Part shown: piece by piece, positions 1,755 to 32,000 of the stretch
How positions within the stretch are numbered: position 1 is the stretch's first letter
Layout of the letters: the number at the start of each line of letters is the position of its first letter
Assembly: GCA_963716945.1 (NCBI GenBank)
Contig: OY970322.1
Span: 840,001-872,000 of the forward strand
Reading direction: 5' to 3'
DNA length: 32,000 nucleotides
Source of the DNA: Candidatus Saccharimonadota bacterium
GTDB lineage: Bacteria > Patescibacteriota > Saccharimonadia > Saccharimonadales > UBA4665
The notes under the pieces: model-generated
Told to the model about the DNA's origin: nothing
Databases searched by the model: none
What the model saw: the letters and a program-made list of their open reading frames with translations, nothing else
Translations under genes and position numbers: made by a program

Positions 1755-2171
1755 ATGATTAGCACTACAGTTAAGGCAGTTCAGCGTAGCTTATTAGTAC
1801 GCGAAGTATATGCTATTGACCCCAAAGGCAACGTCTGGAAGCGCTTAGGGGGGTTCGGTGAGGCGAAGTGGGAATTATTAAAATGGGGGAGTATGACAAT
1901 AATCACTACTACTTTGACTATAATTGTTATAATGGTTCTTAGTAATAAGCGAAGGATTATAATGCCAAATCGTCAGGCCCCACAACCCACAGGTAATGCT
2001 AGAGTGCGTATTGCACCCGGACGTATTCAGGCGGTTGTTAGTGCTAGTGGAACTATATTTAAGGGCAGCGAAACGGTTTACCCTGCGGTACAACCGGCCG
2101 CGAATGTTGTTCCACCTTTGCCGTCACCAAGAAATCAGGCCCCCACACAAAGCGCCAGCACAGGGAGCTAG
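1755..2171 (+). CDS. Hypothetical small protein with one central TM helix and a Pro/Ala/Gln-rich tail (start uncertain: GTG 1710, ATG 1755 or ATG 1893)
   Basis: ORF-track frame 1710..2171. It has a hydrophobic segment TIITTTLTIIVIMVL. Its stop TAG abuts the ATG of the next ORF (2169-2171 / 2172), suggesting coupling. I recognise no family. Confidence 0.4.
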   Translation: MISTTVKAVQRSLLVREVYAIDPKGNVWKRLGGFGEAKWELLKWGSMTIITTTLTIIVIMVLSNKRRIIMPNRQAPQPTGNARVRIAPGRIQAVVSASGTIFKGSETVYPAVQPAANVVPPLPSPRNQAPTQSASTGS

Positions 2172-2783
2172 ATGGACCTCGCTTCTTTAACTGTTCCCAA
2201 TGTTGTCCTTTTTGTGGTGCCTGGATACTTTGCGATCCAAGCTTATTCATCAGTGCATTCAAAGTCAGACAAAGACTTTTCTAAATTGCTAGTCGAGAGC
2301 ATAGCTTTCAGTCTGCCTTTGGTTGGGATATATAATCCGCTTTTCGATGCCGTATACAAACATCTATTCGGTGGGAATGTTCAGAAAGTTGCTGTAACTG
2401 ACATTAAGTACTTCCTGCCACTCCTTATAATTTCTCCATTGTTAGGTTTTGTGTGGGCCAAATTGAGAGATACGAATTGGCTTAAAGAGTTCGCGTCCAA
2501 ATTTGGCATACGTGGCCCAAATAACGATTTCATAGAAACACAATTCAATAAACTAAAATCAGGTGAATACGTTACCGTAACACTTAAAAATGGAGAAGTA
2601 TTTGCCGGAGTCAGGAGGGGAACTAGTACTTATAGAAAAGACGAAATACAAAGATGTTATTTTAACTTTGTAGAGTGGTATAACGAAAAAACCGGTAAAT
2701 GGGATAAACGTCAAGGTAGCTTAATATTCGCAATTGATGATGTCGAGTACATGGAGACGAGCCATGAATTACCAAAATGGTAG
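2172..2783 (+). CDS. Hypothetical membrane protein: about 3 N-terminal TM helices plus a beta-rich soluble C-terminal domain (possibly DUF6338-like, from memory)
   Basis: 203 aa. Hydrophobic segments are VVLFVVPGYFAIQAY, IAFSLPLVGIY and FLPLLIISPLLGFVWA. The C-terminal stretch YVTVTLKNGEVFAGVRRG looks like beta-strands. AT-rich codon usage is unlike the flanking genes. Confidence 0.6.
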   Translation: MDLASLTVPNVVLFVVPGYFAIQAYSSVHSKSDKDFSKLLVESIAFSLPLVGIYNPLFDAVYKHLFGGNVQKVAVTDIKYFLPLLIISPLLGFVWAKLRDTNWLKEFASKFGIRGPNNDFIETQFNKLKSGEYVTVTLKNGEVFAGVRRGTSTYRKDEIQRCYFNFVEWYNEKTGKWDKRQGSLIFAIDDVEYMETSHELPKW

Positions 2784-3018
2784 TTACTTGTTTAAGCTAC
2801 GGTTAGGAGATTTTTGGCACAGGTAAACTTGGGTCTTGGGGAAGATCTCTAGTAGCTTTGCCGCAACTTTCGCAGGTATTGTCTACGGTAGGCTTGTAGT
2901 ACCTAACGCAGCCTATTGTGGTGCAATATTTATCTTCTTCCATCAGTACATCATACGTCTACTTGCTATAAAGGGATAGTCGCCATACATTTAACGCTTA
3001 TCTTGGAATTATCTGAGG

Positions 3019-3640: not shown

Positions 3641-4780
3641 TTACGACGGGTAGCTGTTGCCAGCGCTGGTGATGAACAGGTCGTGCGGGTGGCTTTCGCT
3701 CAGGGAGGCGCTGGTGATCCGGCGCAGGACGGCGGTCTCCCAGAGTTCGGGAATGGATTTGGCGCCGACGTAATAGAAGCCCGAACGGATACCCTCGGTC
3801 ATCGTCTGGACGACCGTGTCCAAGTCGCCGCTGGACGGCACCAGGCCTTCGACGCCTTCGGCGACCAGGACGGTCTTGCCGGTGTAGCTTTTGCCATGGA
3901 ACTCGTCTTCGGAGCTGATCTTCTTGCCGCGTTCCATGGCGCCGATCGAGCCCATGCCGCGGTAGCCTTTGAACTTGTAGGTATCGGCACCGTTGATGAT
4001 GCTGCGGAAGCGGGCCGGTACCTGGTCAGGCGTAAATTCGATGACTTCACCCGGCGACTCTTCGGTGGCGGCAAACAGCCGGCCCATCATGACCGACGAA
4101 GCGCCGGCCGCCAAGGCTTTGGTGATATCGCCGAAATAGTTGATGCCGCCGTCGGCGATGACCGGGACGCCGTGCTGCTTGGCGACCTCGGAAGACTCGA
4201 TGATAGCCGTCAGCTGCGGCACGCCCATGCCCGACACGATCCGGGTCGTGCAAATGGCGCCCGGCCCCATGCCGACCCTCAGGCCGTCGGCACCGGCCTC
4301 GATCAGCGCTTCGGCGCCTTCGGCGGTGGCGATGTTGCCGGCGATAACGTCGACCTTGTGGTGCTTCTTGATAAAGGTGACGGCCTCGATGACAAACTTG
4401 GAAAAGCCATGGGCCGAGTCAACCACGATAACGTCGACGCCGGCGGCCACCAAAGCCTTGACCCGCTCTTCGTAACCCGGGCTGGAACCGACTGCCGCAC
4501 CGGCCAGCTGGCCGGCCTTCTTGACTTTGGCGACTTCGGCGGCCTGGTCCTTGATAGTCAGGTTGCGGTGGATGATACCGATGCCGCCGGCCTTGCCGAG
4601 GGCGATGGCCAGCCGGCTTTCGGTCACGGTGTCCATAGGTGCCGATACCAGCGGTACTTTGAGGCTGATATTACGCGTTAGCCGGCTGCCGAGGGCGATG
4701 TCGGAACGTGAAAACCCGGCATAACCGGGTTTTAGTAATACGTCGTCAAATGTGAGGGCGGTCTCTGTACTAATCTGCAT
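3641..4780 (-). CDS. guaB: IMP dehydrogenase family protein lacking the CBS (Bateman) subdomain
   Basis: 379 aa. The N-terminus [12 protein letters not shown]...SAPMDTVTE...GGIGIIHRN is IMPDH-like. It has the catalytic loop [11 protein letters not shown] and the C-terminal SESHPHD motif. The roughly 120-aa CBS pair normally found after ...EVAKVKK is replaced by a few residues. Confidence 0.85.
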
Positions 4781-4785
4781 AATCC

Positions 4786-4815
4786 ATTCTAAGCCTAAAC
4801 CACTAGCTTTGTCAA
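4786..4815 (-). promoter_or_regulatory. Sigma70-like promoter TTGACA-18 nt-TAGAAT, 5 nt upstream of the IMPDH ATG (leaderless geometry)
   Basis: Minus-strand reading: TTGACA (4815-4810), an 18-nt spacer, TAGAAT (4791-4786), ggatt, then ATG at 4780. There is no SD. Confidence 0.55.
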
Positions 4816-4832
4816 AGGCCGGGCCGCCGAAT

Positions 4833-7379
4833 TCAGGCCCGTTTAGCCGAAAATTCGGTCTCGGCGGCGGCAGCAGCAGTGTCGAGCAAGCGGTTGACTT
4901 CGGCGTCGGTCAGGGTCCGGTCGTAGCTGGCGATGCTCAAGCGGAAGCTGACATTTTTGTGGCCGGCATCATCTTCGGCCTGGTAAATATCGAGGAACTC
5001 CAGCTTGGGCAAGCTGTTAGGCGGCTGGGCTTTGGCAATCTCCGAGCGGACAAAGTCAAGGAGTTCCCGGTAAGCCAGTTCGGCCGGTACTTTGAGCGTC
5101 AGGTCCTGCGTGACTTTGGGGAAGCGCGGCAGCGGCACATAGGCGGCGGCCGGGTGCGGTTTTAGCAGCTGCAGCAGGTCGATTTCGAAACCGGCGGCGT
5201 AGTCCGGCAGTTTCAGCGCCTGGCGAACGGAAAGTTTGAACTCCCCGACCTCTCCCAGCACCGTGTCGCCGATATGGACGGTTGCCGCGCGGCCGGTTTC
5301 GTAATAGGGGATGCGGGTGCGGGTTTCACCGATGTATTTAGCCGGGTCCAGGGTTTCGAAAACCACGTCATCGGCCAGGCCGGGCGCCGCCAGCAGCTCC
5401 ACCAGGAATTTTTTAGCCTGGTAGTAGGGGGCGCCGCCATATTGCTTAGCCGCCTTGGCATCGGCCGCAAAGACGAAAGCCGCCCGCTCGAACTCAACCG
5501 GCACGCCGTCATGTTCGACGCCGGCGATGTGGGCTTTGCCCAGCTCGAAAAGGCCGAAACGGTCATACCCGGCCTTGACGTTGAGATGGATTTTGTCGAG
5601 CAGGCTCGGCAGCAGGCTCAGGCGGTAATACTGCAGGTCCGGACTGAGGGCATTGGCTACCTGGAAAGCCACGGCCTTATCCTGGCCGACCTTATCCATC
5701 AAATCGCCATGGACGAAACTATAAGTCAGGACTTCGTTGGCGCCGGCCCGGCTCAAGGTCCGGCGGACGGCGGCTTTCAGTTCCAGCAACGGGTCTTTGG
5801 CAACCGGCGCCAGGTCGCGGCGCGGCAGCTCCAGCGGCAATTTGTCATAGCCGTAAAGCCGGCCGATTTCCTCGACGACGTCTTCGCGCAGCTCGATGTC
5901 GGTGCGCCAGAAAGGTGCCGCCACGATTAGTTCGCCGCCGTTAAGTTCGACTTTGAACTCGACGTTTTCGAGCAGCGTTTTCATCTCGCCGGCCGCCAAT
6001 TCCAGGCCTAGACGGTCATTTATAAAGTCAGCCGCCAGCTTGACCGGCGGGTATAAACTATTGCGTTCCAAGACCGTGGCGTCCAAGTGATTATCGTCCA
6101 GGACTTGGCCCGCGACCTGGCCGGCGGCATGATTATGAATCTCATCGACGATCTTGGCTAAGACGGCCAGGTTCTGCAGCGGGCTCTGGCCTTTGGTGAA
6201 GCGGGTCACGGCATCGGTGAACAGGCCGTGCGCCATGCTGGTACGCCGCACCGAGTACATGTCGAAATTAGCGCACTCCAAGATGATATTCTCGGTGTGT
6301 TCGTCAACCTCGGTTTCACTGCCGCCCATCACGCCGCCGACACCTATCAACTGCTTATCGGTAGCGATCATGATAGCTTCGGCCCGCGGTTCGATCTGCT
6401 TGCCGTTCAACAGCTTGATTTTCTCGCCCGGCTTGGGGTTGCGGATCGTAATCACGGCCTCGCCGCCGCTCAAGGACTTGACCTTGTCATAATCGTAAGC
6501 GTGCAGCGGCTGGCCGGTCTCCAGCATATAGAAGTTAGTGTAATCGACGATGTTGTTGATTGATTTCTGGCCCAGCTCGGCCAGGGCCACTTGCAGCCAC
6601 AGGGGGCTTGGCCCGACCTTGACGCCGGCCATCGTAACGGCCGTGAACCGCCGCACCAGGTCCGGCAGTTCGTTCCTGATCTCAAGCGGCAGTTTGGAAT
6701 CGGCGGTTTCCGGGAAAGCCGGCCGCGGCACATACCAGCCGGGACTTGCGTAAGGCAGGCCCTGGATGCCGGCGAATTCTCGGGCTATGCCCAAGAAACC
6801 GAAACAGTCCGGCCGGTGCGTAAACATCTTGTTCTCAATGTCGAGGATGGTGTCGTCCAGACCCAGGGTTTCGGCGAAATCGGCGCCCGGCTGAGCTTCC
6901 CCGAGCTCCAGGATGCCGGCGTGGCTGTCGCCCAGCGCCAATTCCCGAAGCGAGGCCAGCATACCGTTGCTCTTCTGGCCGCGAATTTCGCGGGCTTCCA
7001 GCACGAACGGCTCCTTGTCAAAAGTCTCGGGTACCGTCGTGCCCGGCGGCAGCCAGGCCACGGTCAGGCCTTCGCGGACGTTGGGCGCGCCGCAAACCAC
7101 CTGGACATAACCCTGCCCGTCGCGTTCGACATCTTTGACCGCTCGGCCGTCATCGATTTTGCATAAGTTCAGTTTGTCGGCGTCAGGATGCTTGACGCAC
7201 GAAACGACTTTGGCGATGACGATGCCCCGGTACTTCTTGCCCAGGTCAATGACTTCGTCGACGCCGCCGAGCTGGGCGCCGACTTTTCGGACCAGTTCGT
7301 CGATACCGATTGCCGTTACGTCATCGGCGCTGTCATACTTCTCATTCAGCCGCCGGACTATGTTCAGGCTGACCTTCAT
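4833..7379 (-). CDS. pheT: Phenylalanine--tRNA ligase beta subunit
   Basis: 848 aa with an N-terminal OB/tRNA-binding domain (VKHPDADKLNLCKIDDG), B3/4 and B5 regions, and a C-terminal FDX-ACB-like domain. It overlaps pheS by 4 nt. Confidence 0.95.
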   Translation of the reverse strand: MKVSLNIVRRLNEKYDSADDVTAIGIDELVRKVGAQLGGVDEVIDLGKKYRGIVIAKVVSCVKHPDADKLNLCKIDDGRAVKDVERDGQGYVQVVCGAPNVREGLTVAWLPPGTTVPETFDKEPFVLEAREIRGQKSNGMLASLRELALGDSHAGILELGEAQPGADFAETLGLDDTILDIENKMFTHRPDCFGFLGIAREFAGIQGLPYASPGWYVPRPAFPETADSKLPLEIRNELPDLVRRFTAVTMAGVKVGPSPLWLQVALAELGQKSINNIVDYTNFYMLETGQPLHAYDYDKVKSLSGGEAVITIRNPKPGEKIKLLNGKQIEPRAEAIMIATDKQLIGVGGVMGGSETEVDEHTENIILECANFDMYSVRRTSMAHGLFTDAVTRFTKGQSPLQNLAVLAKIVDEIHNHAAGQVAGQVLDDNHLDATVLERNSLYPPVKLAADFINDRLGLELAAGEMKTLLENVEFKVELNGGELIVAAPFWRTDIELREDVVEEIGRLYGYDKLPLELPRRDLAPVAKDPLLELKAAVRRTLSRAGANEVLTYSFVHGDLMDKVGQDKAVAFQVANALSPDLQYYRLSLLPSLLDKIHLNVKAGYDRFGLFELGKAHIAGVEHDGVPVEFERAAFVFAADAKAAKQYGGAPYYQAKKFLVELLAAPGLADDVVFETLDPAKYIGETRTRIPYYETGRAATVHIGDTVLGEVGEFKLSVRQALKLPDYAAGFEIDLLQLLKPHPAAAYVPLPRFPKVTQDLTLKVPAELAYRELLDFVRSEIAKAQPPNSLPKLEFLDIYQAEDDAGHKNVSFRLSIASYDRTLTDAEVNRLLDTAAAAAETEFSAKRA

Positions 7380-8485: not shown

Positions 8486-9094
8486 TTAAGAGCCGGAGAA
8501 GCCCGTGGTGTGCGGCGACGGGGTAGCAACCTCGTCAGGATGTACGCGGCCTTCGGCCAAGGCATGGCCGGAAAGGGCGTGGCCGCCCAACGACTGCAGG
8601 ACGACCGTATCGCCGACGGTGGTTACGGTCTCCAGGCAATCGAGGTCTTCAGGATTAGGAATCGATACCAGCCAGCGGGTCCGGACACCGTCAACTTCTA
8701 CGGGCTGGCTTTTTAGGATAACGCCGATCGGCTGGTCTTCCTCAGAGATGCCCGGCTGGGCAGGCAAGTCGCTAATCTCAAGCTGGAAGCCGCTGATACC
8801 CGGTTCGGCTAAAGGTTCGTCGCGGTTGATCCTCTTGCTATCCAGCCGCTTGCCATTGGGCCGCTCTTCCCACAAGAAAGCATCCCATTCAACGCCGGGC
8901 TTGGTCGGCCTCAGGCTTACCTGGGCGGCCTGCTCGCCTTCGCGGCGCAGCGCCGCCAGGCTTGTCCGGTTAGCGGTCTGGGCCGCCCTCAGGGCCCTGG
9001 TAGCGGCATGCATCTTTTGGGCGGCCTTGACGGCCAGCACCAGATCTTCGGCGGCCTGGAGTTCAGTGCCGGTTTCTTTTGACGGAATACCCAT
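8486..9094 (-). CDS. Hypothetical protein (Ala-rich helical N-terminus, beta-rich C-terminus)
   Basis: 202 aa with native GC. An SD AGGAG lies 9 nt upstream of the ATG. I recognise no family motif. Confidence 0.6.
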   Translation of the reverse strand: MGIPSKETGTELQAAEDLVLAVKAAQKMHAATRALRAAQTANRTSLAALRREGEQAAQVSLRPTKPGVEWDAFLWEERPNGKRLDSKRINRDEPLAEPGISGFQLEISDLPAQPGISEEDQPIGVILKSQPVEVDGVRTRWLVSIPNPEDLDCLETVTTVGDTVVLQSLGGHALSGHALAEGRVHPDEVATPSPHTTGFSGS

Positions 9095-9242
9095 AATATA
9101 TACTCCTGACTGGCACTCGGCGTGCCGGCTTAGCGCCCACCCGGTATTTTCTTAATACATTATTCTAATATTTACCAGCCGGCCCGTCAACCCGGCGGAT
9201 AAGCTGTTTGGCCTGGACCGCCCGAGGACTTAATATATGGGT

Positions 9243-9740
9243 ATGGCAAATTTTTCATTTGACGCGGTCAGCGACTACGACAAGGCCGAGATGAATAACG
9301 TCTTCGACCAGACACAGCGCGAGATGGCCAACCGTTATGATTTCAAAGGTACGCCGGCGGCCATAGAGTGGCTGAACGGCGACAAGACCGGGCTCAAGAT
9401 TACCGGCAGCGGCGATTGGCAAATCGACGCCATCCTGGATATCGTGCGCAAGAAACTGGCCGCCCGCAACCAAAGCCAAAAAACGCTGGACACCACAGGC
9501 GAGGTCGTCGAAAGCAACCTCAAAGCCGTCAAAGAAGTGCCCTTCGTCCAAGGCTTAAGCCAAGACAAGGCCAAAAAAATCACTTCGCTGCTGCGCGATA
9601 AGTTCCCGAAACTCAAAACCCAAATCCAAGGCGACGCCGTCCGCGTCACCGGCAACAGCAAAGACGACCTCCAGGCGGCCATGCAATTATTGCGCGCCCA
9701 GGACTTCGACTTCCCGCTCGGTTTCAACAATTTCAGGTAA
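9243..9740 (+). CDS. yajQ: YajQ family (UPF0234) nucleotide / cyclic-di-GMP-binding protein
   Basis: MANFSFDAVSDYDKAEMNNVFDQTQREMANRYDFKG...QGDAVRV...DDLQ... matches the YajQ family layout. The ORF track starts at ATG 9237; I prefer ATG 9243, which lies 6 nt after a TAATAT -10 at 9231-9236. Confidence 0.9.
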   Translation: MANFSFDAVSDYDKAEMNNVFDQTQREMANRYDFKGTPAAIEWLNGDKTGLKITGSGDWQIDAILDIVRKKLAARNQSQKTLDTTGEVVESNLKAVKEVPFVQGLSQDKAKKITSLLRDKFPKLKTQIQGDAVRVTGNSKDDLQAAMQLLRAQDFDFPLGFNNFR

Positions 9741-9750
9741 ACTAAAGCTT

Positions 9751-11076
9751 ATGCAGGATAACCCTGATTTGCTGGCTCAGACTAAAGCCGTGCTCGAAAT
9801 GAACGACCGCGGCAATTACACCCAACCGGCCCACGGACTGTACCCGCACCAGTGGCTGTGGGACAGCTGCTTCATCGCGATCGGTTTGCGCCACCTCGAC
9901 GTCGAGCGGTCCAAAACCGAACTGCTCAGCCTGCTGCGCGGCCAGTGGCGCAACGGTATGCTGCCGAACATTATCTTCCGTGACGACCCGCAATACCGGG
10001 CCGACCGCAATATCTGGCGCAGCTGGCTGAGCCCGTTCGCGCCCAACGACATCATGACGACCGGCATCACCCAGCCGCCGGTGCTGGCCGAAGCCGTCGT
10101 CCAAGTCGGCAAGAAGCTGGCCTGGCCGGAGCGCCGCCAATGGTACCGCATGGTCTACCCGGCGCTGGTAGCTTACCACCAATGGCTGTACAACGAACGC
10201 GACCCGCACGGGGAAGGTTTGATCCTACTGATCCACCCCTGGGAAACCGGCCTTGATAACACGCCGCCCTGGATGGCCGAGATGCACGAGCACCTGCTGC
10301 CGCTGTGGATCCGGGTGATCGAGAAAACCCGTTTCGACCGCGTGATCAACCTCTTCCGGCGCGACGCCCGCTCGGTGCCGTTGGACCAGCGCTTCTCGAC
10401 CATCGAATCGCTGGCCCTGCTGGACATCCAGCGCCGGTTGCGGCGCAAAGCCTATGACATTAACAAAATCCTCGACCATTCGCTATTCGCAATTGAAGAC
10501 TTAACCTTTAACAGCATCCTGATCCGGGCCAACACCCACTTGCGCGAAATTGCCAAAAGTTTGCGCGAAGACTTGCCCGGCGCCCTGGGGGCCAGCATGG
10601 CCAAGACCGAAAAGGCGTTCAACGATCTGTGGGACCCCTATTCGGGCCAGTATTATTCGCGCGATTTCATCACTCACCGGCTGCTCAAAACCCCCAGTAT
10701 CGCTACCCTGTTGCCGTTGTACGCCGGATCGGTAACCAAAGAGCGGGCCGAACAGCTGGTGCGGCTGCTCGAGAACGACCAGGCCTTCGGTCCGGCTTAC
10801 CCGGTACCCAGCGTGCCGCTGAATTCTTTCTGGTTCCAACCCAAGCTTTACTGGCAGGGACCGGCCTGGGTCAATATGAACTGGCTGATAATCGACGGCT
10901 TGAGGCGCTACGGTTTCGACGACCACGCCGCGGCGCTGCGCGAAACGACGCTCGAGATGGTCGCCAAATCAGGCTCTTCCGAATACTTCGACCCGTTAAC
11001 CGGCGAAGCGGCCGGCGCGAGTAACTTCTCCTGGACCGCCGCCCTGGCGATCGACCTCCTGAAAACCGCTAAATAA
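9751..11076 (+). CDS. (alpha/alpha)6-barrel glycoside hydrolase, GH63-like (mannosylglycerate/glucosylglycerate hydrolase- or trehalase-like)
   Basis: 441 aa. Motifs YPHQWLWDSCFIAIG, IHPWETGLDNTPPW and YWQGPAWVNMNW are typical of the GH63/GH37-type clan. Substrate cannot be assigned from sequence. Confidence 0.75.
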   Translation: MQDNPDLLAQTKAVLEMNDRGNYTQPAHGLYPHQWLWDSCFIAIGLRHLDVERSKTELLSLLRGQWRNGMLPNIIFRDDPQYRADRNIWRSWLSPFAPNDIMTTGITQPPVLAEAVVQVGKKLAWPERRQWYRMVYPALVAYHQWLYNERDPHGEGLILLIHPWETGLDNTPPWMAEMHEHLLPLWIRVIEKTRFDRVINLFRRDARSVPLDQRFSTIESLALLDIQRRLRRKAYDINKILDHSLFAIEDLTFNSILIRANTHLREIAKSLREDLPGALGASMAKTEKAFNDLWDPYSGQYYSRDFITHRLLKTPSIATLLPLYAGSVTKERAEQLVRLLENDQAFGPAYPVPSVPLNSFWFQPKLYWQGPAWVNMNWLIIDGLRRYGFDDHAAALRETTLEMVAKSGSSEYFDPLTGEAAGASNFSWTAALAIDLLKTAK

Positions 11077-11080
11077 AACC

Positions 11081-12244
11081 ATGCCCTACTCCGCCGCCCA
11101 CACCCACTACCACCTCAGCCGGATGAAAGAAATGGGCCGTATCTACTGGTGCCACAGCGTCAGTTCTTCGGGCATCGCGCTGGCGGCTATTTTCATTCCG
11201 ATCTTTCTGCTCAAACTCGGCTATTCGCTGCACAGCGTCTTCCTCTATCTGCTGATGCAGCAGGGCCTGGCAGCCGTGCTGCAGTATCCGGCCGCCCGGC
11301 TTTTCCGGTATATTAGGCCACACCGTTTGCTGGTGCTGGGCAATCTCTGGTACGCGGTGCTATTTGGCTTGCTGATCAGCCTGCAGGCCCGCCATTGGCC
11401 GCTGCTGATGCTGGCCCTGGCCTGGGCGCTGACCCGGACGATCTATTGGGCGGCTTTCCATTTTTGCTTCAGCCTGGCCCGCGGCCACAAGCACCCGGCC
11501 CGCAAGATTGCCGGCATCAACGCCTTGAATATGCTGACTGCCACCGCTTCGCCGGCTATCGGCGGCATCGTGGCAACGGCTTTTGGTATCAGCTACGTTT
11601 ACCTGGCGGCCGTGCTGTTGCTGATTATCTCGGTGTTGCCGATGCTCAAACGCGGGGACGGCCCGGACAAGACGGATGTCAGGATAGACTGGCAACAGAT
11701 CTGGGTCATGCGCCGCGATGCCTTCGCCAACGCTTTCAACGGCACGGTCGGCATGGCCGAGCTGAACATCTGGCCGCTGTTCGTCTTCCTGCTGGTCAGC
11801 TCGTACGCCGGTATCGGCTTATTGAGTTCGGTCATCGCCGCCAGCAGCATAGTCGTTACTTTGTATGTCGGCCGGCGGCAGGAAGCCAAAGGCGAAGGCC
11901 ACTACATCAACCGCGGCGCGGCGGCCTACAGCCTGACCAGTCTCGGCCGGGCGATTGCCGAAAACACGTTCCAGGTCTTCGGCCTGAACCTGCTTGGCGG
12001 CGTCGGCCGGTCGCTCTATGTCACGCCGTACATGAACCGCTACTACACCAACAGCGACGGTGACGGTTCGTTCCGGCTGGGCTATATCACGGTCATGGAA
12101 ACCTCGTTTTCGCTCGGCGCCGTGCTTTATACGCTGGGGCTGCTAGCCTTGACGGCGGTCTTCCCGATCAAAACCGTCCTGTCCATAGGCCTGGCTTTCG
12201 TCGCTCTGGCCGCGATCGGCGTGCGGCTAATCCGTCAGCACTAA
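11081..12244 (+). CDS. MFS-type transporter
   Basis: 387 aa with about 10-12 hydrophobic helices. It starts 4 nt after the glycoside hydrolase stop, so an operon is likely. Confidence 0.7.
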   Translation: MPYSAAHTHYHLSRMKEMGRIYWCHSVSSSGIALAAIFIPIFLLKLGYSLHSVFLYLLMQQGLAAVLQYPAARLFRYIRPHRLLVLGNLWYAVLFGLLISLQARHWPLLMLALAWALTRTIYWAAFHFCFSLARGHKHPARKIAGINALNMLTATASPAIGGIVATAFGISYVYLAAVLLLIISVLPMLKRGDGPDKTDVRIDWQQIWVMRRDAFANAFNGTVGMAELNIWPLFVFLLVSSYAGIGLLSSVIAASSIVVTLYVGRRQEAKGEGHYINRGAAAYSLTSLGRAIAENTFQVFGLNLLGGVGRSLYVTPYMNRYYTNSDGDGSFRLGYITVMETSFSLGAVLYTLGLLALTAVFPIKTVLSIGLAFVALAAIGVRLIRQH

Positions 12245-13290
12245 TCGTCCAAATGGGGCTTGTCGAGCGCTAAAGGCTCGATAGAGACTTCGGTATCGGC
12301 GATCTTGACGATGTCGCGGTCGATTTTGCCTAGTTCCTTATAGGTAGTATTGAAGTGGCCGACGGTCGTGCCGAGGCTGCTGCCGAGCTTGATCATGTAG
12401 CCGTTGTGGGCCAGCAGGTGTTTATGCAGCTGCTCAATGTTCTTGCGGATTTTTTCGGTGTCTTTGTGGATTTCGATTGACCGGAGGCCTTGGACGATAG
12501 TCTGCAGCATGGCCGACAGCGTGCTCGGGCCGACAATCGTGACTTTCTTGTCGGCGGCGGCGTACTGCATCAGGTTGCGGCCGCTGACGCCGCCGAGGCC
12601 GACTTTGTTAGCCAGCAGGTCGTAGTAAATCGCTTCGCTCGGGATGAACATCAGCGCCTGGTCGAGCGTACCCTTGCCGGGCTTGATGTATTTGGCGGTC
12701 TCGTCAATCCGGCGCTTGAGGTCTTCCTTGAAAGCCTTCTCCAGCGCCGGCCGGTCGGCTTCTTTGGCGTCAATCAGCCGGTTGTAGTTCTCCAGCGAGA
12801 ACTTGCTGTCAATCGGCAGTACCCGGTCATCCAGCAGGATGGCGGCGTCGACGATCAGGCCCTCGCCCAGCTTGTATTGGAGCTGGTAGGCGCCCGGCGG
12901 CAAGGTGTTCTTAAGAATTTGCTCCAGGTAATACTCGCCGAGCACGCCGCGCTGTTTCGGGTTCTGCAAAACGTTTTGCAGGGTCTTGAGTTCGGAGGCG
13001 ATGTCGCCGACATTCTTATTGGTGCGGTCGAGCTCGGTCAGCTTCTGGGTGACATCGGCGATAATCTTGCTGCTGGCCGCGAACTGGGCCGTCATCTGTT
13101 TATTGCTGGCCCCCAGCTGGTCGCTGAGCTGTTTCTGCAAGCCGTCCTTGAGCTGCGTGACGTTTTTATTCAATTCGGTCAAATCGGCCTTGATGAGCAG
13201 CGAACTCTGGGCATCGCCGGCCGGCCGCCGCAACAGCGCCGCCGCCAGTACCAACACCAGAATCCCCAAAACGATAACCGCTATAAGCAT
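12241..13290 (-). CDS. rmuC: DNA recombination protein RmuC
   Basis: 349 aa with an N-terminal TM anchor, a long coiled-coil region and a C-terminal RmuC domain (MFIPSEAIYYDLL...VTIVGPSTLSAMLQ). An extended -10 TGATAGAAT lies 6 nt upstream of the ATG. Confidence 0.9.
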   Translation of the reverse strand: MLIAVIVLGILVLVLAAALLRRPAGDAQSSLLIKADLTELNKNVTQLKDGLQKQLSDQLGASNKQMTAQFAASSKIIADVTQKLTELDRTNKNVGDIASELKTLQNVLQNPKQRGVLGEYYLEQILKNTLPPGAYQLQYKLGEGLIVDAAILLDDRVLPIDSKFSLENYNRLIDAKEADRPALEKAFKEDLKRRIDETAKYIKPGKGTLDQALMFIPSEAIYYDLLANKVGLGGVSGRNLMQYAAADKKVTIVGPSTLSAMLQTIVQGLRSIEIHKDTEKIRKNIEQLHKHLLAHNGYMIKLGSSLGTTVGHFNTTYKELGKIDRDIVKIADTEVSIEPLALDKPHLDD

Positions 13291-22635: not shown

Positions 22636-23085
22636 TTATAGTGCTGGGAGTATTTTTTGCGGGAACTCATTTTCGCCAATTTTACCTTTAAGTCTGCCAT
22701 CGCTACCTGATACTGAGTATTTCTGACGCGGTCTACGTACAATCCTAATCCATTCATTAAGGCCGTGATCCTCATCCAAGGCGGCCTTTAGTTCCTGAAA
22801 ACTTAAGCATACTATTCCATCGTCGTTACAAACAAGTGCAACAAAAACTGTTTTAAACGTTTCTTGCATTCTATGTATATCATCTTGGTGGTCTTGATGA
22901 AAGGTAAAAATCCAAGGCGATAGTCGGTTAGTTGAGTGTTTTATGTATAAACCGACATTGTCATTGAGTATATAGGCTGCGTTAGCGCTCCTACAAACAA
23001 AACTTTCTACTTTGACCCCGCCTGGTACACCATGAATTAATCTCGTAAGCACAGTGCCATGAAAAAATTCATATTTATGAATCAT
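22636..23085 (-). CDS. Hypothetical 149-aa protein, tightly linked downstream partner of the Z1-domain ATPase
   Basis: Its ATG lies 3 nt after the Z1 gene stop (TAAtacATG). The alternating hydrophobic pattern suggests a small alpha/beta domain. The E6...D42...K49 (LYIKHS) spacing is loosely PD-(D/E)XK-like, but the acidic residue of the (D/E)xK motif is not evident. Confidence 0.7.
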   Translation of the reverse strand: MIHKYEFFHGTVLTRLIHGVPGGVKVESFVCRSANAAYILNDNVGLYIKHSTNRLSPWIFTFHQDHQDDIHRMQETFKTVFVALVCNDDGIVCLSFQELKAALDEDHGLNEWIRIVRRPRQKYSVSGSDGRLKGKIGENEFPQKILPAL

Positions 23086-23088
23086 GTA

Positions 23089-24972
23089 TTATTTATAGCG
23101 TCTATTTTTTAAAAATCTTATATTACCAGCTTCAGGAGCGTATTTATAGAATACTCTGGCCATTCCTTCGGGATTTTTAAAAATCTTTATGTGGTGGATG
23201 GCACGGGGAAACTTAGGCTGTTCCAGAGTGTTTTCTGCCATGAAGCCCCTAGTACGCTGGATATTTTTCACATCCGCACTTTTATAAGATACATCAAGAG
23301 CTGTGGTGCGGTGTACCGCAATAGACTCATTACCAAAAGGACTAAAGTCTCTAATAAATTCCAGCACATATAATGGTAAAGAGTCTTCAGGCAATAATGA
23401 TTTAAGCTGTTTAAGTTTTGGTGCGGAATTGATATCGCTATTTATGAGATCGTCAATTTCGGAGGTGTAAGCGAAAATTTGCCAACTCATCTCACCACTA
23501 TCGAGTGTCACATTTGTTTTATTTATGCTTGAGGATGCAGCAGCTGAAACTCGGGAATCTTCTAGCCAAACTGGGCTCCCTTGACCAGAACGTATTGCCG
23601 ATAGGGCCAGGCGGTGAAAAACAAAGCATTTCTGCCATCCTAGGTATAGTCGTTCGGGGATATGTAATTCAAAATATTCAAGATACTTACCTCTGGTGCC
23701 AAACATTCGTGCTCTCTGAATATAGGTGTCCTGTTGAATTTTATGCTTCACGTCACGTGTGAAAAACATACTAAGTAAATTCTCGAAAGTTACTCCTCTG
23801 GAAACTATATTACCCCCAATTGCTATTGTAAAAAGAGAAGACGGGCTAGTCGCTGACTTATACTCATTTGCAGCTTTATCAGAATTACTATTCATGACAA
23901 CAATGTTATTACGGCCTATGTTGGTCTTAACAAACTTGGTCAAAATGTCCTCCCTGTTAGGATAGTTTTTTAGAGCTATTTCCCAAAGACGTTTTACATA
24001 TGCCTCATATTTAGGATCATCCTCGTCTTTTAGAACATTTAATATCTTAACTACTTGTTTGTAATCTTCAGTATGATCCACTTTTTTCCCGCTAGTGTGT
24101 ACCAACATACTGTAGTTTTGTTCTTGCTCATTTTTGTAGAGATTGAGATACGCCACGTTAATCATGAAGCTTAGTAATGCATCCCTTAGATATTTTGGAG
24201 CATCATGATCTTCTGGTAATAAAACTAGCTTATACTTTAGCGTCTCTCCATTATCATCCTGGGCACCCTGTGTGGGGAAGAATTTATCTTGTCCTGTATA
24301 TAGAGGATGTGGAGGAAAATCCACCCATTTTTCGTTGTCATTTTCGAATGTATTATTTAGGTCAAGTCTGGCGGGTGTGGCAGTAACGCCAATGTAGATT
24401 CCGTCTGAACCTATTAGCTTTTCAACAAGTTCGTTAATTTTAGTTTTTTCATTTTTATTGATTTTTGCGTTTGGACTTGCATAATCAGCCTCATCATCAA
24501 TTACTACGCGCCCATGAATACGATCAATTCGTGACAAAAGCTTTTGGAGATCGCTAGAATTCTTCTTACTAAATATCACCCAATACCCTTTATTAAGCTC
24601 GACGCTTGGATCCATAATTTCATGGAACCTCTTAGGTGCCGGGTCAAGACCCGAACGCGAGAACCGCTCTAGATTTTGTTCAAGAAGTTGCACTGAATCA
24701 TTTAACAGCAAGATAATAATTTTATGCCCATCATCAAGGAGCCTTGCAGTTAGAGCAATCATCATTTCAGTCTTACCACTCTGCGGTTCACCATAAACCA
24801 CAAATGAACGAGTCGCCTGATGAACTATATTAACAATTGATTTATCTACGGCTAGCTCTATTCCGTCGGTCCAAAGCCCTTTTTTCTTTAATAACTTGAG
24901 ATTACTCTCGTAACGAAAGCTTGCATGCTCAACTGCGGCGCCTTTAAACTTGTTGATGTCAAAATCCGCCAT
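23089..24972 (-). CDS. Z1-domain protein: P-loop/DEAD-like SF2-type ATPase fused to a Z1 domain
   Basis: 627 aa with Walker A GEPQSGKT (aa 61-68), Walker B DDEAD (159-163) and VTATPARL. The Z1-type signature is GGNIVSRGVTFENL...QQDTYIQRARMFG (aa 386-425), compared with the family pattern GGxxLSRGxTxEGL...DTLxQxxRWFGYR. An SD AGAGG lies 6 nt upstream. Confidence 0.85.
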   Translation of the reverse strand: MADFDINKFKGAAVEHASFRYESNLKLLKKKGLWTDGIELAVDKSIVNIVHQATRSFVVYGEPQSGKTEMMIALTARLLDDGHKIIILLLNDSVQLLEQNLERFSRSGLDPAPKRFHEIMDPSVELNKGYWVIFSKKNSSDLQKLLSRIDRIHGRVVIDDEADYASPNAKINKNEKTKINELVEKLIGSDGIYIGVTATPARLDLNNTFENDNEKWVDFPPHPLYTGQDKFFPTQGAQDDNGETLKYKLVLLPEDHDAPKYLRDALLSFMINVAYLNLYKNEQEQNYSMLVHTSGKKVDHTEDYKQVVKILNVLKDEDDPKYEAYVKRLWEIALKNYPNREDILTKFVKTNIGRNNIVVMNSNSDKAANEYKSATSPSSLFTIAIGGNIVSRGVTFENLLSMFFTRDVKHKIQQDTYIQRARMFGTRGKYLEYFELHIPERLYLGWQKCFVFHRLALSAIRSGQGSPVWLEDSRVSAAASSSINKTNVTLDSGEMSWQIFAYTSEIDDLINSDINSAPKLKQLKSLLPEDSLPLYVLEFIRDFSPFGNESIAVHRTTALDVSYKSADVKNIQRTRGFMAENTLEQPKFPRAIHHIKIFKNPEGMARVFYKYAPEAGNIRFLKNRRYK

Positions 24973-25079
24973 CGCATACCTCTTTCAATTAAGATATTTT
25001 TATGCCTTTAATACTAGCATCTTTTCAGATTATAAAAATGAAATGTCAATTCTTCTTTAGTGCAAGTATAATGATCTAA

Positions 25080-26258
25080 GTGAAAATTAAGCATATTCAT
25101 CCTTTCCCTGCCCGTATGGCTCCCGAGATAGCTCTTGATGAATGCAACAAACTACAGAAGGGATCAACCATTCTCGATCCAATGTGTGGATCTGGAACAA
25201 CCCTACGAATGGCGATTAAGTCAAGCATGAACGCCATAGGAAGTGATTTAGATCCTCTTGCAGTGCTAATAGCAACCGTAGGCACAACTTATCTGGATGA
25301 GGATACAGTAGTTAAAGTCGCTCAAGATGTGGTCTCTAAAGCCCGGCTGCTTTCGTTAAAAGAGACTCGTCTGCCATGGATAGACACCGATCAAGAGACG
25401 AAAGCTTTTATAGACTTCTGGTTTGCAAAAAAACAGATTAACGATCTACGTAAGATTGTCACTATTATATTTAGAGATTATGAATCAGAAACTCAGTCTT
25501 TTCTCAAGATTGTAGTAAGTCGCCTAATAATCACAAAAGATATGTCCGCGTCGCTAGCTAGAGACACATCTCATAGCAGGCCGCACCGAATCTCTTTAAC
25601 CAATGACTATGACGTTTTTGCCAATTATATAAAATATGCTAAGCAAGTAGCACAACGGCTGCCTAAAGAACCTACGTCCTTAGTGAAAGTAAGTCGTAGT
25701 GATGCTAGGCAACTAAATGACATCGCTGATAATTCAATTGATGCTGTCATTACATCTCCACCATACTTGAACGCCATAGACTACATGCGAGGTAATAAGC
25801 TCTCTCTAGTATGGCTTGGCTATAAAGTCAGTGACTTACGTTATGTTAGAGGCATTAGTATTGGCGCAGAAAAGAGACTACAGGAATCTATAGATCAAGG
25901 ACTTCTATCACGATTAACAAAGGACATGCATTTTTATAAAGACCTAGGAAGCCCTCATAAAGGTATGTTCGAGCGATATATGATTGATATGCTCGCATTA
26001 ATGAAAGAGGTCAGGAGAGTGCTAAAGCCAGGTAGTAAGGCAACATTAGTTGTAGGTAATTCATGCTTGCGAGGAACTTTCATTAAAAATACTACGGCAG
26101 TTATCTCAGCTGCAGAAATACTAGGTTTTAAATTCTTAGATGAAGTTGCTCATGAGCTACCTCAAAATATGCGATATCTTCCAACTCCGGCAAGTAGCCA
26201 AAAAACACCTCTATCAAAACGAATACGTACTGAGTCAATCCTTTATTTTAGCAAATAA
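25080..26258 (+). CDS. DNA amino-methyltransferase (N4-cytosine or N6-adenine), SPPY motif
   Basis: 392 aa with SAM motif I ILDPMCGSGTT (aa 31-41) and catalytic motif IV DAVITSPPY (aa 221-229), separated by about 185 aa (alpha-like order). A VLKPGSKATLVVGNS motif follows motif IV. The only in-frame start is GTG 25080, directly preceded by a stop. Confidence 0.85.
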   Translation: MKIKHIHPFPARMAPEIALDECNKLQKGSTILDPMCGSGTTLRMAIKSSMNAIGSDLDPLAVLIATVGTTYLDEDTVVKVAQDVVSKARLLSLKETRLPWIDTDQETKAFIDFWFAKKQINDLRKIVTIIFRDYESETQSFLKIVVSRLIITKDMSASLARDTSHSRPHRISLTNDYDVFANYIKYAKQVAQRLPKEPTSLVKVSRSDARQLNDIADNSIDAVITSPPYLNAIDYMRGNKLSLVWLGYKVSDLRYVRGISIGAEKRLQESIDQGLLSRLTKDMHFYKDLGSPHKGMFERYMIDMLALMKEVRRVLKPGSKATLVVGNSCLRGTFIKNTTAVISAAEILGFKFLDEVAHELPQNMRYLPTPASSQKTPLSKRIRTESILYFSK

Positions 26259-28123
26259 CCTATGTCGCATACGCTATCTAAATAATGCTGTGTCTCCGCA
26301 TCTACCGAATGCACATAACAGCCTTTTTGGCCGCGGGTCATGAGAGTTCGATAGGTGTTCTTTATAATCTGGTCGGCGAGTGCTTCGGCTGCTGCTGGAT
26401 CTTCTGCATGCATCTTCTTATAGCCATGGACCGACTTGTCAGAGCCAGCGCGTTTGGTGGCGTCAGTGATAATTCTGCCGTTGCGGACTATTAAGTCTGG
26501 ACCGATAATTACGCCCACATAGTCCATTTCAAGACCTTGGCAGGTGTGGATGCAGCCGATTTCGTTGACTGCATCAGGCTTCAAAATCCATAAATTACCA
26601 TCGCTAGCTAAGTTCCAGCGCATGGCAAAATCATACTCGTCTATGATAACGTCTTTAACCTGGCCTGTTCGATCATTCTTGCTCTGCCATTTCCAGCAAT
26701 AGCCGGCAACAAGTCGTGCCTTATTTGCTATCTTATTCTTTTCAAAAATTAGATCGCGCAGCTCATTGGGATTATTTATAACCTTAAAATCGTAATCGAT
26801 TCCGGCCATGGTTTCGTTTGCCGTTTCGTGAATCTGGAGAGTGTTATCTAGCCAAGCTAAATAGCCGTCCGAGCCATTGCAGCGAAACTGGGATTCAAGA
26901 ATTAGCTCTTGGGTCTTTGCTCCAATCTGGAAGGCCCACATTTTTATTTCCTCGCTCTCACCGATGTCTTTCAGCGTTACTTTCTGGTCTTCGTCTAGGA
27001 AGAAAATACTAAACTTGGATGATTCTATGATTTCTTTAATCTGATTTTCGCCTTTGTTTTGATACATGCCTGACTTGGCGTTCAGGCGGTGCGCTTCATC
27101 GACTATAAGAGCATCAAATAAGTTGGGCTTCGTTTCTGTGAACGAGCCTGACCCGCTAAACAAATTGCTTATATGGCTCTTGCGGAAACTTTTTGTTAAC
27201 TTGCTTTCGTAAACATCGCGCGGCGCGGCATTTCTAGTGACATACTTCGTTAGCAACTGCTTTTTTGTAAGCTCGACCAGAAGATTTATTGCTACTACGG
27301 ACTTACCCGTGCCGGGCCCACCTTGTACGATCAAGACGTTTTTATTATTGACAGTTGATTGCTCCGCTAGCTTAAGAGCAGTTTCATAAACCACTTTTTG
27401 GTCATCTATCATAAGAAATTCTTGATTGCCTTGCAGCATTGAGTCGAGCTTGTCGGCCAGATTCTTGGATGGCTTAATCTTGCCATGGTCAATGCGATAC
27501 ATGACCTGATCCTTATCGCCGTACTTAACATTGGCTTTTATAAACTCTCGGAGCTTCAAGGCATCCGGCTTAAGAAATACCGGCGCCTTATCCGTATAGT
27601 CCTTATAAAACTCATTGGTGATAACGTCATCCTGTTCATAGTTGTGTAGATAGGCACATGGGTGTAGTTGAATATGTTCTTCGTGTACTGTTTGATTAAA
27701 GTCTTCAAGCAAGCAGGCGTAAGTCCACGCTTGGTAAGAAGGATGGGAGACTTCCCTTTCGGCTCGGCCGACATAGCTGACAACAATGCCATCCTTATCA
27801 CTTAAGGTCGCTTCGCTCCATTGTTTTAATTCAATCAGAATGGCAGCATCTTGACGCTTGGCGTTCTTGCCGGCAATTATGAAGTCGATCCTCTTTGACG
27901 ATTGCGGAATGTGATATTCGATCGCTATTTCGGTGTTTTGTGATATTTCATCATCTTCCAAAACTCTGTACATGTACTGCATGGAGTTTTCCCAAGATCT
28001 TATTTCACTCATGCTCGTTTTGTGACCGGTGGCTTTTTTAAAGGCTCTATGGACTATGTCACCGATGTCATTAGACATTACGTCCTTCATGAAGTCCTCT
28101 TTTGTAGAGGTGTATACAATCAC
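26243..28123 (-). CDS. DUF2075-type protein: N-terminal PD-(D/E)XK nuclease-like domain plus SF1-like P-loop ATPase (Schlafen-helicase-like)
   Basis: 626 aa. Nuclease-like residues are E69, D80 (RIDFII) and E98-L-K100 (ILIELKQW). It has Walker A GGPGTGKS (268-275) and Walker B IVDEAHRL (340-347). Family-typical motifs are ESQFRCNGSDGYLAWL and HTCQGLEMDYVGVIIG. The GTG start overlaps the MazG-like stop. Confidence 0.85.
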   Translation of the reverse strand: MIVYTSTKEDFMKDVMSNDIGDIVHRAFKKATGHKTSMSEIRSWENSMQYMYRVLEDDEISQNTEIAIEYHIPQSSKRIDFIIAGKNAKRQDAAILIELKQWSEATLSDKDGIVVSYVGRAEREVSHPSYQAWTYACLLEDFNQTVHEEHIQLHPCAYLHNYEQDDVITNEFYKDYTDKAPVFLKPDALKLREFIKANVKYGDKDQVMYRIDHGKIKPSKNLADKLDSMLQGNQEFLMIDDQKVVYETALKLAEQSTVNNKNVLIVQGGPGTGKSVVAINLLVELTKKQLLTKYVTRNAAPRDVYESKLTKSFRKSHISNLFSGSGSFTETKPNLFDALIVDEAHRLNAKSGMYQNKGENQIKEIIESSKFSIFFLDEDQKVTLKDIGESEEIKMWAFQIGAKTQELILESQFRCNGSDGYLAWLDNTLQIHETANETMAGIDYDFKVINNPNELRDLIFEKNKIANKARLVAGYCWKWQSKNDRTGQVKDVIIDEYDFAMRWNLASDGNLWILKPDAVNEIGCIHTCQGLEMDYVGVIIGPDLIVRNGRIITDATKRAGSDKSVHGYKKMHAEDPAAAEALADQIIKNTYRTLMTRGQKGCYVHSVDAETQHYLDSVCDIGYLLK

Positions 28124-28473
28124 TTGTCTAGGTCCGTATATTTCTTGTGATTGCCTTTGGCTTTTTTGACTGGGTATTTTGCTGCGTTTTTCTCCATTTT
28201 TTTCTTAAGAGCGGTCGGCAAATCGATTTTTAAATCATTAGCCAGCAGCAACACCCAGTAAAGAACGTCGGCTAATTCATCGCTTACGTCATCAATGTGC
28301 TCGCTTAGATGTTGCTGTATTTCCTGTTTGTCTTTCCATTGAAAATGTTCAAGCAGTTCGCCAGCCTCTAGTACGAGTGAAATAGCTACATCTTTTGGGT
28401 TATGGAATTGTTGCCAATCGCGAGCATCACGAAACTCAATAATTTTTTGCTGCAACTCCCTCAAATCGCTCAT
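28120..28473 (-). CDS. MazG-like all-alpha nucleoside triphosphate pyrophosphohydrolase
   Basis: 117 aa with FRDARDW..FH.PKD...L.LEAGELLEHFQW (the EExxE-type metal site) and SDELADVLYWVLLLAN (the ExxD site). It is first in a two-gene operon. An extended -10 TGTTAATAT (28491-28483) lies 9 nt upstream of the ATG. Confidence 0.85.
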   Translation of the reverse strand: MSDLRELQQKIIEFRDARDWQQFHNPKDVAISLVLEAGELLEHFQWKDKQEIQQHLSEHIDDVSDELADVLYWVLLLANDLKIDLPTALKKKMEKNAAKYPVKKAKGNHKKYTDLDK

Positions 28474-30264: not shown

Positions 30265-32000
30265 TCAGCGCTTGCGCTTCTTGGGGTCGAGTTCACGCTT
30301 GCGCAGACGCAGGCTCTTCGGCGTTACCTCTAATAATTCGTCGTTTTCGATGAAGTCGAGGCATTGTTCGAGGCTGAGTATAGTCGGCGGTGTCAGTTGG
30401 ACCGTGCCGTCGGAGGACGAACTGCGCATGTTGGTCAGGTGCTTGGCCTTGCAAACGTTGATTTCCATGTCTTCCTGGCGGGTGTTGAGGCCGATAATCT
30501 GGCCGGCGTAAATCTTCTCGGCCGGACCGATGAAGATCGTACCGCGGGCCTCGGCCGTTTCCAGGGCGTAAGGCGTGGTGGTGCCGGTCTCGAACCCGAT
30601 CAGCACGCCGTTGCGCAGCTGCTGCAGGGCGGCGGTTTGCGGCTGCGAACCGATAACCAGGCTGTTCATGACGATCGTGCCCTTGGTGTTGGTCAGCAGG
30701 ATGTTGCGCATACCGAGCAGGGCGCGGGTCGGCATCTCGTAGATCAGCTTGGTCACGCCTTTGGAGGCCGAAGTGAATTGTTCCTTGAGGGTCGCCCGGC
30801 GCTGGCCGAGTTCCATCTGGACGGTACCGACGTGTTCGGCCGGGACTTCGATGATAACTTCTTCGACCGGCTCCATGGTTTGGCCGTTTTCTTCGTGGGT
30901 AACGACCTGCGGCCGGCCGACTTCGAACTCGTAGCCTTCGCGGCGCATGGTTTCGATCAGGACGCCGAGGTGCAGTTCGCCGCGGCCGGCGACCGTGAAG
31001 CCGATGCCGTCTTCTTCGACCTGGAGGCCGACGTTGGTTTCCAGTTCTTTGTCGAGGCGGCCGGCGATCTGGCGCGAGGTATTGAATTCGCCTTCCTGTC
31101 CCTTGAACGGGCTGGTGTTGGGGCCGAGGTAGATCCTCAGCGTCGGCGCTTCGACTTCGATAACCGGCAGGGCTTCCGGCTGTTCGGCGTCGGCGACGGT
31201 TTCGCCGATCTGGGCGTCGGCGATGCCGGTCAGCTGGACGATGTCGCCGGCCACGCCTTCCGGCACTTCGAACTTCGACACGCCGTGGCTCATGAAGACG
31301 TTGTCGACTTTGGCTTTGGTTTGGGTCCCGTCTTTTTTGCACAGCACGACCTGGTCGCCGGGTTTGACCCGGCCGCGGGTGATGCGGCCGATGGCGTATT
31401 TGCCCTTGAAAGTATCGCTGGCCAGGGCCGTTACCAGCATCTGGAAAGGCTTGTCGAGCTCGACGCTCGGTGCCGGGACGTGTTCGATAATGGCTTGGAA
31501 AATGGCTTCCAGGTCGCCCTTGGCTTCCGCGTCCTGCGGCGGCTCGCTCCAGGCTTTGCCGGCCCGGCCGATGGCGTAATAAACCGGGTAGTGCAGCTGG
31601 TCCTCGTGGACGGCCAGCTCCAGGAACAAGTCGGCCAGCTCGTCTTCGACTTCTTTGATGCGGGCGGCGTCCTTGTCGATTTTGTTAATGATAACTATCG
31701 GCTTGAGCTCGCTCTCCAGCGCCTTCTCAAGCACGAACTTGGTCTGCGGCATCGGACCTTCCTGGGCGTCGACAATCAGGATGCAGCCGTCGGCCATGTT
31801 GAGCGTCCGCTCGACCTCGCCGGAGAAATCGGCGTGGCCCGGCGTGTCGATAATGTTGATGCGGTAGTCATCGTGCTGGACGGCCGTGACTTTGGCGGTA
31901 ATCGTAATCCCCCGCTCCTTCTCCTGGTCGCCGCTGTCCATAATCAGCTCCTGGTTCATTTCGGCCTGATTGTCGCGGAAAGTCTGCGACTGCTTGAGCA
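30265..32000 (-). CDS. typA: Translational GTPase TypA/BipA (N-terminus lies beyond the right edge)
   Basis: G-domain motifs ERGITI, DTPGHADF and NKIDK, followed by EF-G-like domains and a basic C-terminus. The frame stays open upstream of the track's Met to the window edge (…LKQSQTFRDNQAEMNQELIMDS…), as in BipA homologues. Confidence 0.95.
   Translation of the reverse strand, partial: LKQSQTFRDNQAEMNQELIMDSGDQEKERGITITAKVTAVQHDDYRINIIDTPGHADFSGEVERTLNMADGCILIVDAQEGPMPQTKFVLEKALESELKPIVIINKIDKDAARIKEVEDELADLFLELAVHEDQLHYPVYYAIGRAGKAWSEPPQDAEAKGDLEAIFQAIIEHVPAPSVELDKPFQMLVTALASDTFKGKYAIGRITRGRVKPGDQVVLCKKDGTQTKAKVDNVFMSHGVSKFEVPEGVAGDIVQLTGIADAQIGETVADAEQPEALPVIEVEAPTLRIYLGPNTSPFKGQEGEFNTSRQIAGRLDKELETNVGLQVEEDGIGFTVAGRGELHLGVLIETMRREGYEFEVGRPQVVTHEENGQTMEPVEEVIIEVPAEHVGTVQMELGQRRATLKEQFTSASKGVTKLIYEMPTRALLGMRNILLTNTKGTIVMNSLVIGSQPQTAALQQLRNGVLIGFETGTTTPYALETAEARGTIFIGPAEKIYAGQIIGLNTRQEDMEINVCKAKHLTNMRSSSSDGTVQLTPPTILSLEQCLDFIENDELLEVTPKSLRLRKRELDPKKRKR

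Follow-up and report, generated by a model that had tools for sequence, protein, structure and literature searches.

CglI, NgoAVII and BceSIV are ATP-dependent restriction-modification (R-M) systems that are encoded by M, R and H genes and that form an R2H2 complex (Zaremba 2014, PMC4267653; Toliusis 2017, PMC5737866, and 2018, PMC5861437). In CglI and NgoAVII, the R part of the complex recognises unmethylated sites; the complex consumes ~170 ATP per second, translocates on double-stranded DNA, and cleaves on collision. In CglI, R touches the DEAD domain; on its own, H has almost no activity (PMC4267653, PMC5737866, PMC5861437). H.CglI is recognised by a glutamine-substituted Walker A motif, a DDEAD Walker B motif (D158/E159/D161), the histidines H282 and H290, and a short QxxR motif VI (R408) (PMC5861437). 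Here we describe a set of three genes from a Candidatus Saccharimonadota bacterium that encodes a motor (627 amino acids), a methyltransferase (392 amino acids) and a protein of 149 amino acids, which we will call the small protein. The genes lie in a window of 32,000 nucleotides (positions 840,001 to 872,000 of contig OY970322.1), and all positions below are those of the window unless a different locus is named.

The trio is intact and belongs to a very widespread and previously undescribed type of DNA-defence cassette with three genes. We propose that it is probably a self-contained, horizontally acquired R-M system of the CglI/NgoAVII kind, ATP-dependent and with a new R-type partner. The methyltransferase would mark the host's DNA. 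The small protein, which is translationally coupled to the motor, would stand in for the R subunit. Together with the motor, it would form a complex that engages unmethylated DNA, spends ATP on translocating along the double strand, and inactivates this DNA, most likely through cleavage. Formation of the complex, sensitivity to methylation, and cleavage are what we infer for the cassette, while ATP-dependent translocation is predicted from what has been measured for CglI.

The motor is similar to H.CglI in its family and in its motifs. It matches the PADLOC profile "Type II helicase domain protein" (3.7e-42, residues 48–449), which is one point of likeness to CglI. ResIII and SWI2_SNF2 align to residues 41–208, and Pfam PF10593 aligns to residues 262–446. 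Four motifs are invariant across 32 homologues of the motor, and each has a counterpart in H.CglI: GEPQSGKT at 61–68, whose QxGKT (64–68) is the glutamine-substituted form of Walker A; DDEAD at 159–163, corresponding to D158/E159/D161; two histidines eight residues apart, H292/H300, corresponding to H282/H290; and a short-register QxxR motif VI, Q419-R-A-R422, corresponding to R408. The DEAD domain is the best-conserved block of the protein (entropy of 0.23 at residues 61–80). Motif V reads GGNIVSRGVTF, and motif VI (DTYIQRARMFG) is the DThhQXuRhFG signature of Iyer et al. 2008.

The methyltransferase is a Type II DNA amino-methyltransferase (N6_N4_Mtase). It scores 56.1 bits against PF01555 (cut-off 26.7; E = 6.6e-15), with the C-terminal part of the profile aligning to residues 4–62, and it matches PADLOC's MTase_II over nearly its full length (E = 2.4e-30, residues 5–364). 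RNA-methylase families match more weakly (UPF0020, 8.5e-10), and only at the AdoMet-binding loop. An earlier note on this DNA had placed the enzyme among the SPPY amino-methyltransferases, and these scores bear it out. With an N-terminal motif I (DPMCGSGTT) and with SPPY at residues 226–229, the enzyme has a motif order that is permuted relative to the beta-class enzymes. A motif IV of SPPY favours N4-cytosine as the target. The top matches among PDB sequences are the DNA cytosine-N4 methyltransferases 8s9m and 8s9n (E ~3e-06), followed by M.RsrI. Together, the motif and these matches suggest that the target base is N4-cytosine, with N6-adenine as the other possibility. The methyltransferase is presumably the modification enzyme that protects the cell from its own system.

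Distribution and conserved gene order

To describe the context of the family we used a scan of GTDB species representatives, which gave 126 loci; 80 of these were kept, and the counts below are over 85 loci. The family is found in Bacteroidota, Verrucomicrobiota, Acidobacteriota, Actinomycetota, Gammaproteobacteria (including Legionella), Pelagibacteraceae, Chloroflexota, Planctomycetota, Nitrospirota, Thermodesulfobacteriota, many lineages of the candidate phyla radiation (CPR), and a Pacearchaeota archaeon. Its cultured carriers include Flavobacterium silvaticum SE-s28, Chryseobacterium taihuense CGMCC 1.10941, Hufsiella ginkgonis HMF7056, and Pelagibacter HIMB1611. Just one relative turned up in 2.9 million viral contigs, so we view this as a cellular gene set.

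Across phyla, the motor and small-protein genes are almost always adjacent, with start and stop codons that overlap. In the window, the three open reading frames (ORFs) are exactly where the earlier note had put them, and the ATG of the small-protein gene is 3 nt past the stop codon of the motor gene. (Five Pelagibacter loci instead have the pair in divergent orientation.) A methylase gene adjoins the pair in ~70 of the 85 loci. The subclade of the window's enzyme accounts for ~25 loci and a related subclade of SPPY enzymes with 420–440 amino acids for ~40; the other linked methylases are a beta-class enzyme, seen once, and C5 enzymes in Pelagibacter. There are also distant, plasmid-borne relatives of the motor and small-protein pair that have no methylase at all. 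The remaining neighbours vary from locus to locus.

In ~17 of the 85 loci, mainly from Bacteroidota, there is a gene for a GHKL ATPase (HATPase_c_3), and some of these loci also have conserved genes for proteins of 471 and 544 amino acids. We considered that the trio might be incomplete and might depend on a GHKL gene for its activity. The window has no GHKL gene between 21 and 29 kb, and the three genes contain neither a GHKL gene nor a recognisable nuclease domain, as the earlier note had also found. That note viewed the trio as stripped-down and allowed that it might be a fragment with pseudogenised partners. Neither view holds up. A trio without GHKL is what most often occurs in the family, across many phyla, so it is not a reduced variant. 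The three genes are full length when compared with their homologues. A GC-rich gene lies 42 bp upstream of the trio, and on the other side the methylase gene and the convergent DUF2075 gene overlap by 16 bp; this packing is so tight that there is no space for a pseudogenised partner. Furthermore, the motor scores just 47.5 bits against the NCBIfam equivalog for MzaC (NF041933), far below the cut-off of 1500. We give very little credence to a dependence on GHKL.

In an Omnitrophota metagenome-assembled genome (MAG; locus L002, positions 8495–12787), the genes directly downstream of the trio encode a protein with a dCMP deaminase domain, an NT5C nucleotidase, and a GHKL (HATPase_c_3) protein of 823 amino acids. 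This neighbourhood looks like a defence island that includes genes of the nucleotide-depletion type.

The small protein and the site of the nuclease

The small protein matches nothing in Pfam, NCBIfam or PADLOC and none of the PDB sequences, whether single sequences or profiles are compared, in line with the earlier note, which could not assign it to a family. Nor did we find a published description of it in the literature that we searched. A Pfam scan of all 57 aligned members gave nothing but sub-threshold noise (RecU, DapH_N, and Bse634I), with the sub-threshold RecU matches coming from five members. The sole family match is to phrog_28860, which has no assigned function. There are 126 close homologues, and the wider family comprises 988 clusters at 50% identity, with 570 of them below 1e-10. 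Nearly all members are stand-alone proteins of 140–190 amino acids. One homologue (P0280, 313 amino acids) has a cysteine-rich extension, and the extension has no family match. Another, in a Pacearchaeota MAG, is a 361-aa ORF that joins the small protein to an HD-domain protein (L015, positions 4113–5198). We set this fusion aside as a clue to function: it is a single case, the HD match is marginal (22.4 bits, with a cut-off of 22), and an internal methionine suggests that these are two genes, run together through a lost stop codon or a mistake in the assembly.

The AlphaFold 2 (AF2) model of the small protein is confident (pLDDT 86.6, pTM 0.84) and runs from a helix through four strands to a second helix, then two strands, a third helix, and a last set of three strands. 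When it was compared with known structures using Foldseek, the matches were weak, but in both libraries the neighbours were restriction-endonuclease-fold nucleases only. In the PDB (best E = 0.014, TM-scores of 0.4–0.64), they were Hjc, RecU, tRNA splicing endonuclease (EndA), PvuII, and Cas4; in BFVD (best E = 0.004), they were RecU/Hjc-type resolvases along with a "PD(D/E)XK endonuclease". Strict conservation across 128 diverse members is seen at G10, K49, S51, R54, P57, W58, D89, G90, R117, Y123, and G127. Of the positions that would correspond to E-D-ExK (E6, position 35, Y47, and K49), only K49 is invariant. It is plausible that the small protein has a restriction-endonuclease-like fold, but it does not have the classical catalytic triad. 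Whether it is itself the nuclease is, in our judgement, nearly an even question that leans slightly towards no; this identification draws on the weak resemblance in fold and on elimination. The earlier note had suggested the small protein as an effector, and it stands as the candidate. Naming the nuclease is the weakest step of our proposal: the small protein alone resembles a nuclease fold, and it does so without the canonical residues.

Several other observations weigh against our proposal. The fold matches of the small protein are below significance (E >=0.004, with TM-scores of 0.4–0.55 for Hjc, RecU, EndA, and PvuII). A profile-profile comparison (hhalign) of its family with the Hjc family, which we gathered from the Hjc sequence of Pyrococcus furiosus (the database match was 100% identical), was negative (probability 0.3%). 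The canonical metal-binding residues are not kept: position 35, the equivalent of the aspartate, is N, R or K; the glutamate of ExK is replaced by Y, F or H (Y47 here); and E6 is a glutamate in just 66 of the 128 members. R.CglI has 358 amino acids, with a PLD nuclease and a B3 DNA-binding part, whereas the partner here has 149 amino acids, has no PLD or B3 match in Pfam, and has a modelled fold that differs from that of R.CglI. The motor's C-terminal domain has no similarity in sequence or fold to that of H.CglI (6F1S). We also found no obvious hypervariable block, like a target recognition domain (TRD), that might confer specificity in the motor, the small protein or the methylases. Yet the class of the methylase varies (two amino-methylase subclades, one beta-class enzyme, and the C5 enzymes of Pelagibacter), and a few loci have no linked methylase (L071, L074, and L082). 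Our proposal does not account for how the specificities of restriction and modification are matched.

The nuclease might instead be in the C-terminal region of the motor. This region has invariant residues (P467, W469, G493, E494, H554, R573, H593, H594, N600, and R606), and its invariant polar residues at 447–627 (E471, D472, D491, E494, H554, H593, H594, K596, and N600) could form an active site. AF2 models it confidently for residues 492–615, and its fold has no neighbour in the PDB: neither a single-sequence nor a profile search matched any PDB sequence, Foldseek gave no significant match to the model of residues 448–627, and the C-domain of H.CglI (6F1S) was not among the 50 Foldseek matches listed. 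Placing the nuclease here would fit with a small protein that lacks the acidic residues of D/ExK and keeps basic and aromatic ones (K49, R54, W58, R117, and Y123), as is typical of a surface that binds nucleic acids. Similarly, the small protein has a single PDB sequence match, which is weak and not significant (E = 1.2); it falls on the XPF-like domain of Zip2, which is catalytically dead. However, no nuclease family matches the motor's C-terminal region by sequence or by fold, and the equivalent C-domain of CglI binds DNA only (PMC5861437). We also considered H594-I-K596...N600 as an HKD/HKN motif of the PLD type, but no structure with a PLD fold was among the structural neighbours, and we dropped it. 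Overall, we think it unlikely that the motor contains the nuclease.

Another alternative is that the trio does not kill incoming DNA and is an epigenetic or DNA-maintenance module whose motor and small protein remodel or repair DNA according to its methylation status. A nuclease active site is not demonstrable, there is no sign of the hypervariable specificity region, and the conservation is unusually high for restriction enzymes, with motors that are 57–77% identical across phyla. But the family is spread patchily and horizontally among phyla, the island has a foreign GC content, and in some genomes the genes are decaying after insertion of an insertion sequence (IS). The adjacent genes also point to defence (an Nhi/AbiO-like helicase in the window, and dCMP deaminase with NT5C in L002). 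We consider a maintenance role very unlikely, and we prefer an R-M system of the CglI/NgoAVII kind.

There is a reasonable chance, although we would bet against it, that the motor and small-protein pair is the true functional core and can be combined with different classes of methylase or with GHKL ATPases. If so, the relatives that lack a methylase would imply that discrimination between self and non-self does not always need a linked methylase. More broadly, characterising the cassette would define the effector of a widespread class of R-M systems, would test whether a restriction-endonuclease-like fold can cut DNA without the D...ExK triad, and would explain how one pair of motor and partner stays matched to several classes of methylase. 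Because the cassette is small (~3.6 kb for three genes) and has cultured carriers, these ideas can be tested directly.

The low-GC island and its other genes

Next to the trio are genes for a MazG-like protein of 117 amino acids (PF12643, 4e-20) and for a DUF2075 (Schlafen-group-3) helicase of 626 amino acids (PF09848, 6e-104), which overlap each other by 4 nt (Table 1). The earlier note had suggested that the trio might borrow a PD-(D/E)XK domain from the DUF2075 protein as its effector. That protein does have a D79...E98-x-K100 string at its N-terminus, its gene overlaps the 3' end of the methylase gene, and the MazG-DUF2075 pair also adjoins the trio in Flavobacterium silvaticum (L027). But L027 is the only one of the 85 other loci in which DUF2075 is beside the trio, and MazG is beside it in just two (L027 and L062). 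Furthermore, the DUF2075 gene is convergent to the methylase gene and is in an overlapping operon of its own with the MazG-like gene; the PADLOC matches of its product are to defence proteins that stand alone (PDC-S41 at 1.3e-16, AbiO, and Nhi); and co-location is expected within a defence island. The cassette is independent of its neighbours, and of all the explanations that we considered, borrowing from DUF2075 is the one we find hardest to credit. MazG-DUF2075 is probably an independent pair of nuclease and helicase defence genes. On the whole, the earlier interpretation is partly supported.

Table 1. Features of the cassette and of the adjacent gene pair, by window position.
Feature	Positions	Strand	Basis
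Small-protein gene, 149 aa	22636-23085	-	ORF call
Motor gene, 627 aa	23089-24972	-	ORF call
Motor C-terminal region, residues 447-627, fold without assignment	23092-23634	-	
Motor PF10593 region, residues 262-446	23635-24189	-	Pfam PF10593 match, motifs V and VI
Motor DEAD (SF2 N-core) domain, residues ~40-250	24223-24855	-	ResIII and SWI2_SNF2 matches
AT-rich divergent intergenic region between motor operon and methylase gene, 107 bp	24973-25079		
Methylase gene, 392 aa, GTG start	25080-26258	+	ORF call
MazG-like (117 aa) and DUF2075/Schlafen-group-3 helicase (626 aa) module	26243-28473	-	PF12643, PF09848

Together, the trio and the MazG-DUF2075 pair make up an island of ~6 kb (22.6–28.5 kb) with 39–44% GC, while the genome on both flanks has ~60% GC. 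At the borders of the island we found no tRNA and no convincing direct or inverted repeats (att-like or terminal). Just upstream of the GTG of the methylase gene is a candidate sigma-70-like site (ATGTCA-18-TATAAT, 25043–25072, + strand). Promoter-like sites in the 107-bp spacer are not above the shuffled expectation, so this site is only a pointer.

We also noticed a second low-GC stretch in the window, at 1200–3000 (42–48% GC), where an ORF of 153 amino acids without a family match (1710–2171) is followed directly by a DUF6338 protein (2172–2783). This may be another small acquired module. Near the end of the window, an Arg/Pro-rich ORF of 349 amino acids (30293–31342, - strand) lies wholly within the gene for a GTPase of 564 amino acids (30265–31959), which we take to be TypA/BipA-like, in another frame. 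This ORF is an artefact of high GC content and not a gene.

Comparison with described systems

The resemblance of the small protein to Hjc, RecU, and other PD-(D/E)XK nucleases consists of a predicted alpha-beta-beta-beta start, an invariant lysine on the third strand, and the top fold neighbours in PDB and BFVD. It differs from these enzymes in that its family does not keep the catalytic D and E and the similarity is below significance. Additional strands and a conserved D89-G90 hairpin are also present in the small protein; this hairpin and R117/Y123 have no counterpart among the classical E-D-ExK catalytic residues.

Besides the low score against the MzaC equivalog, the Mza system differs in that its other components are absent from the trio, and PADLOC's MzaC profile aligns only to residues 355–441 of the motor.

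The systems of Iyer et al. 2008 are similar in that a small conserved protein is consistently linked, along with a methylase. Their GHKL ATPase is shared by the ~17 relatives of the trio that carry one, but it is absent from the window and from most members of the family. Judging from its description, their NRE partner has the classical E-D-ExK motifs, unlike the small-protein family. Flavobacterium and Pelagibacter, which are in the figure legend of Iyer et al. 2008, also carry the trio family.

Relative to CglI, the methylase is of another class: the CglI enzyme is a C5 methylase, and the enzyme here is an SPPY amino-methyltransferase. Besides the shared motifs, the motor is nearly the same size as H.CglI (627 versus 632 amino acids), and both have the same three-part layout, of which the C-terminal third alone differs. 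Finally, as in CglI and NgoAVII, the methylase, the protein in the R position, and the H-like motor are encoded by three separate genes.

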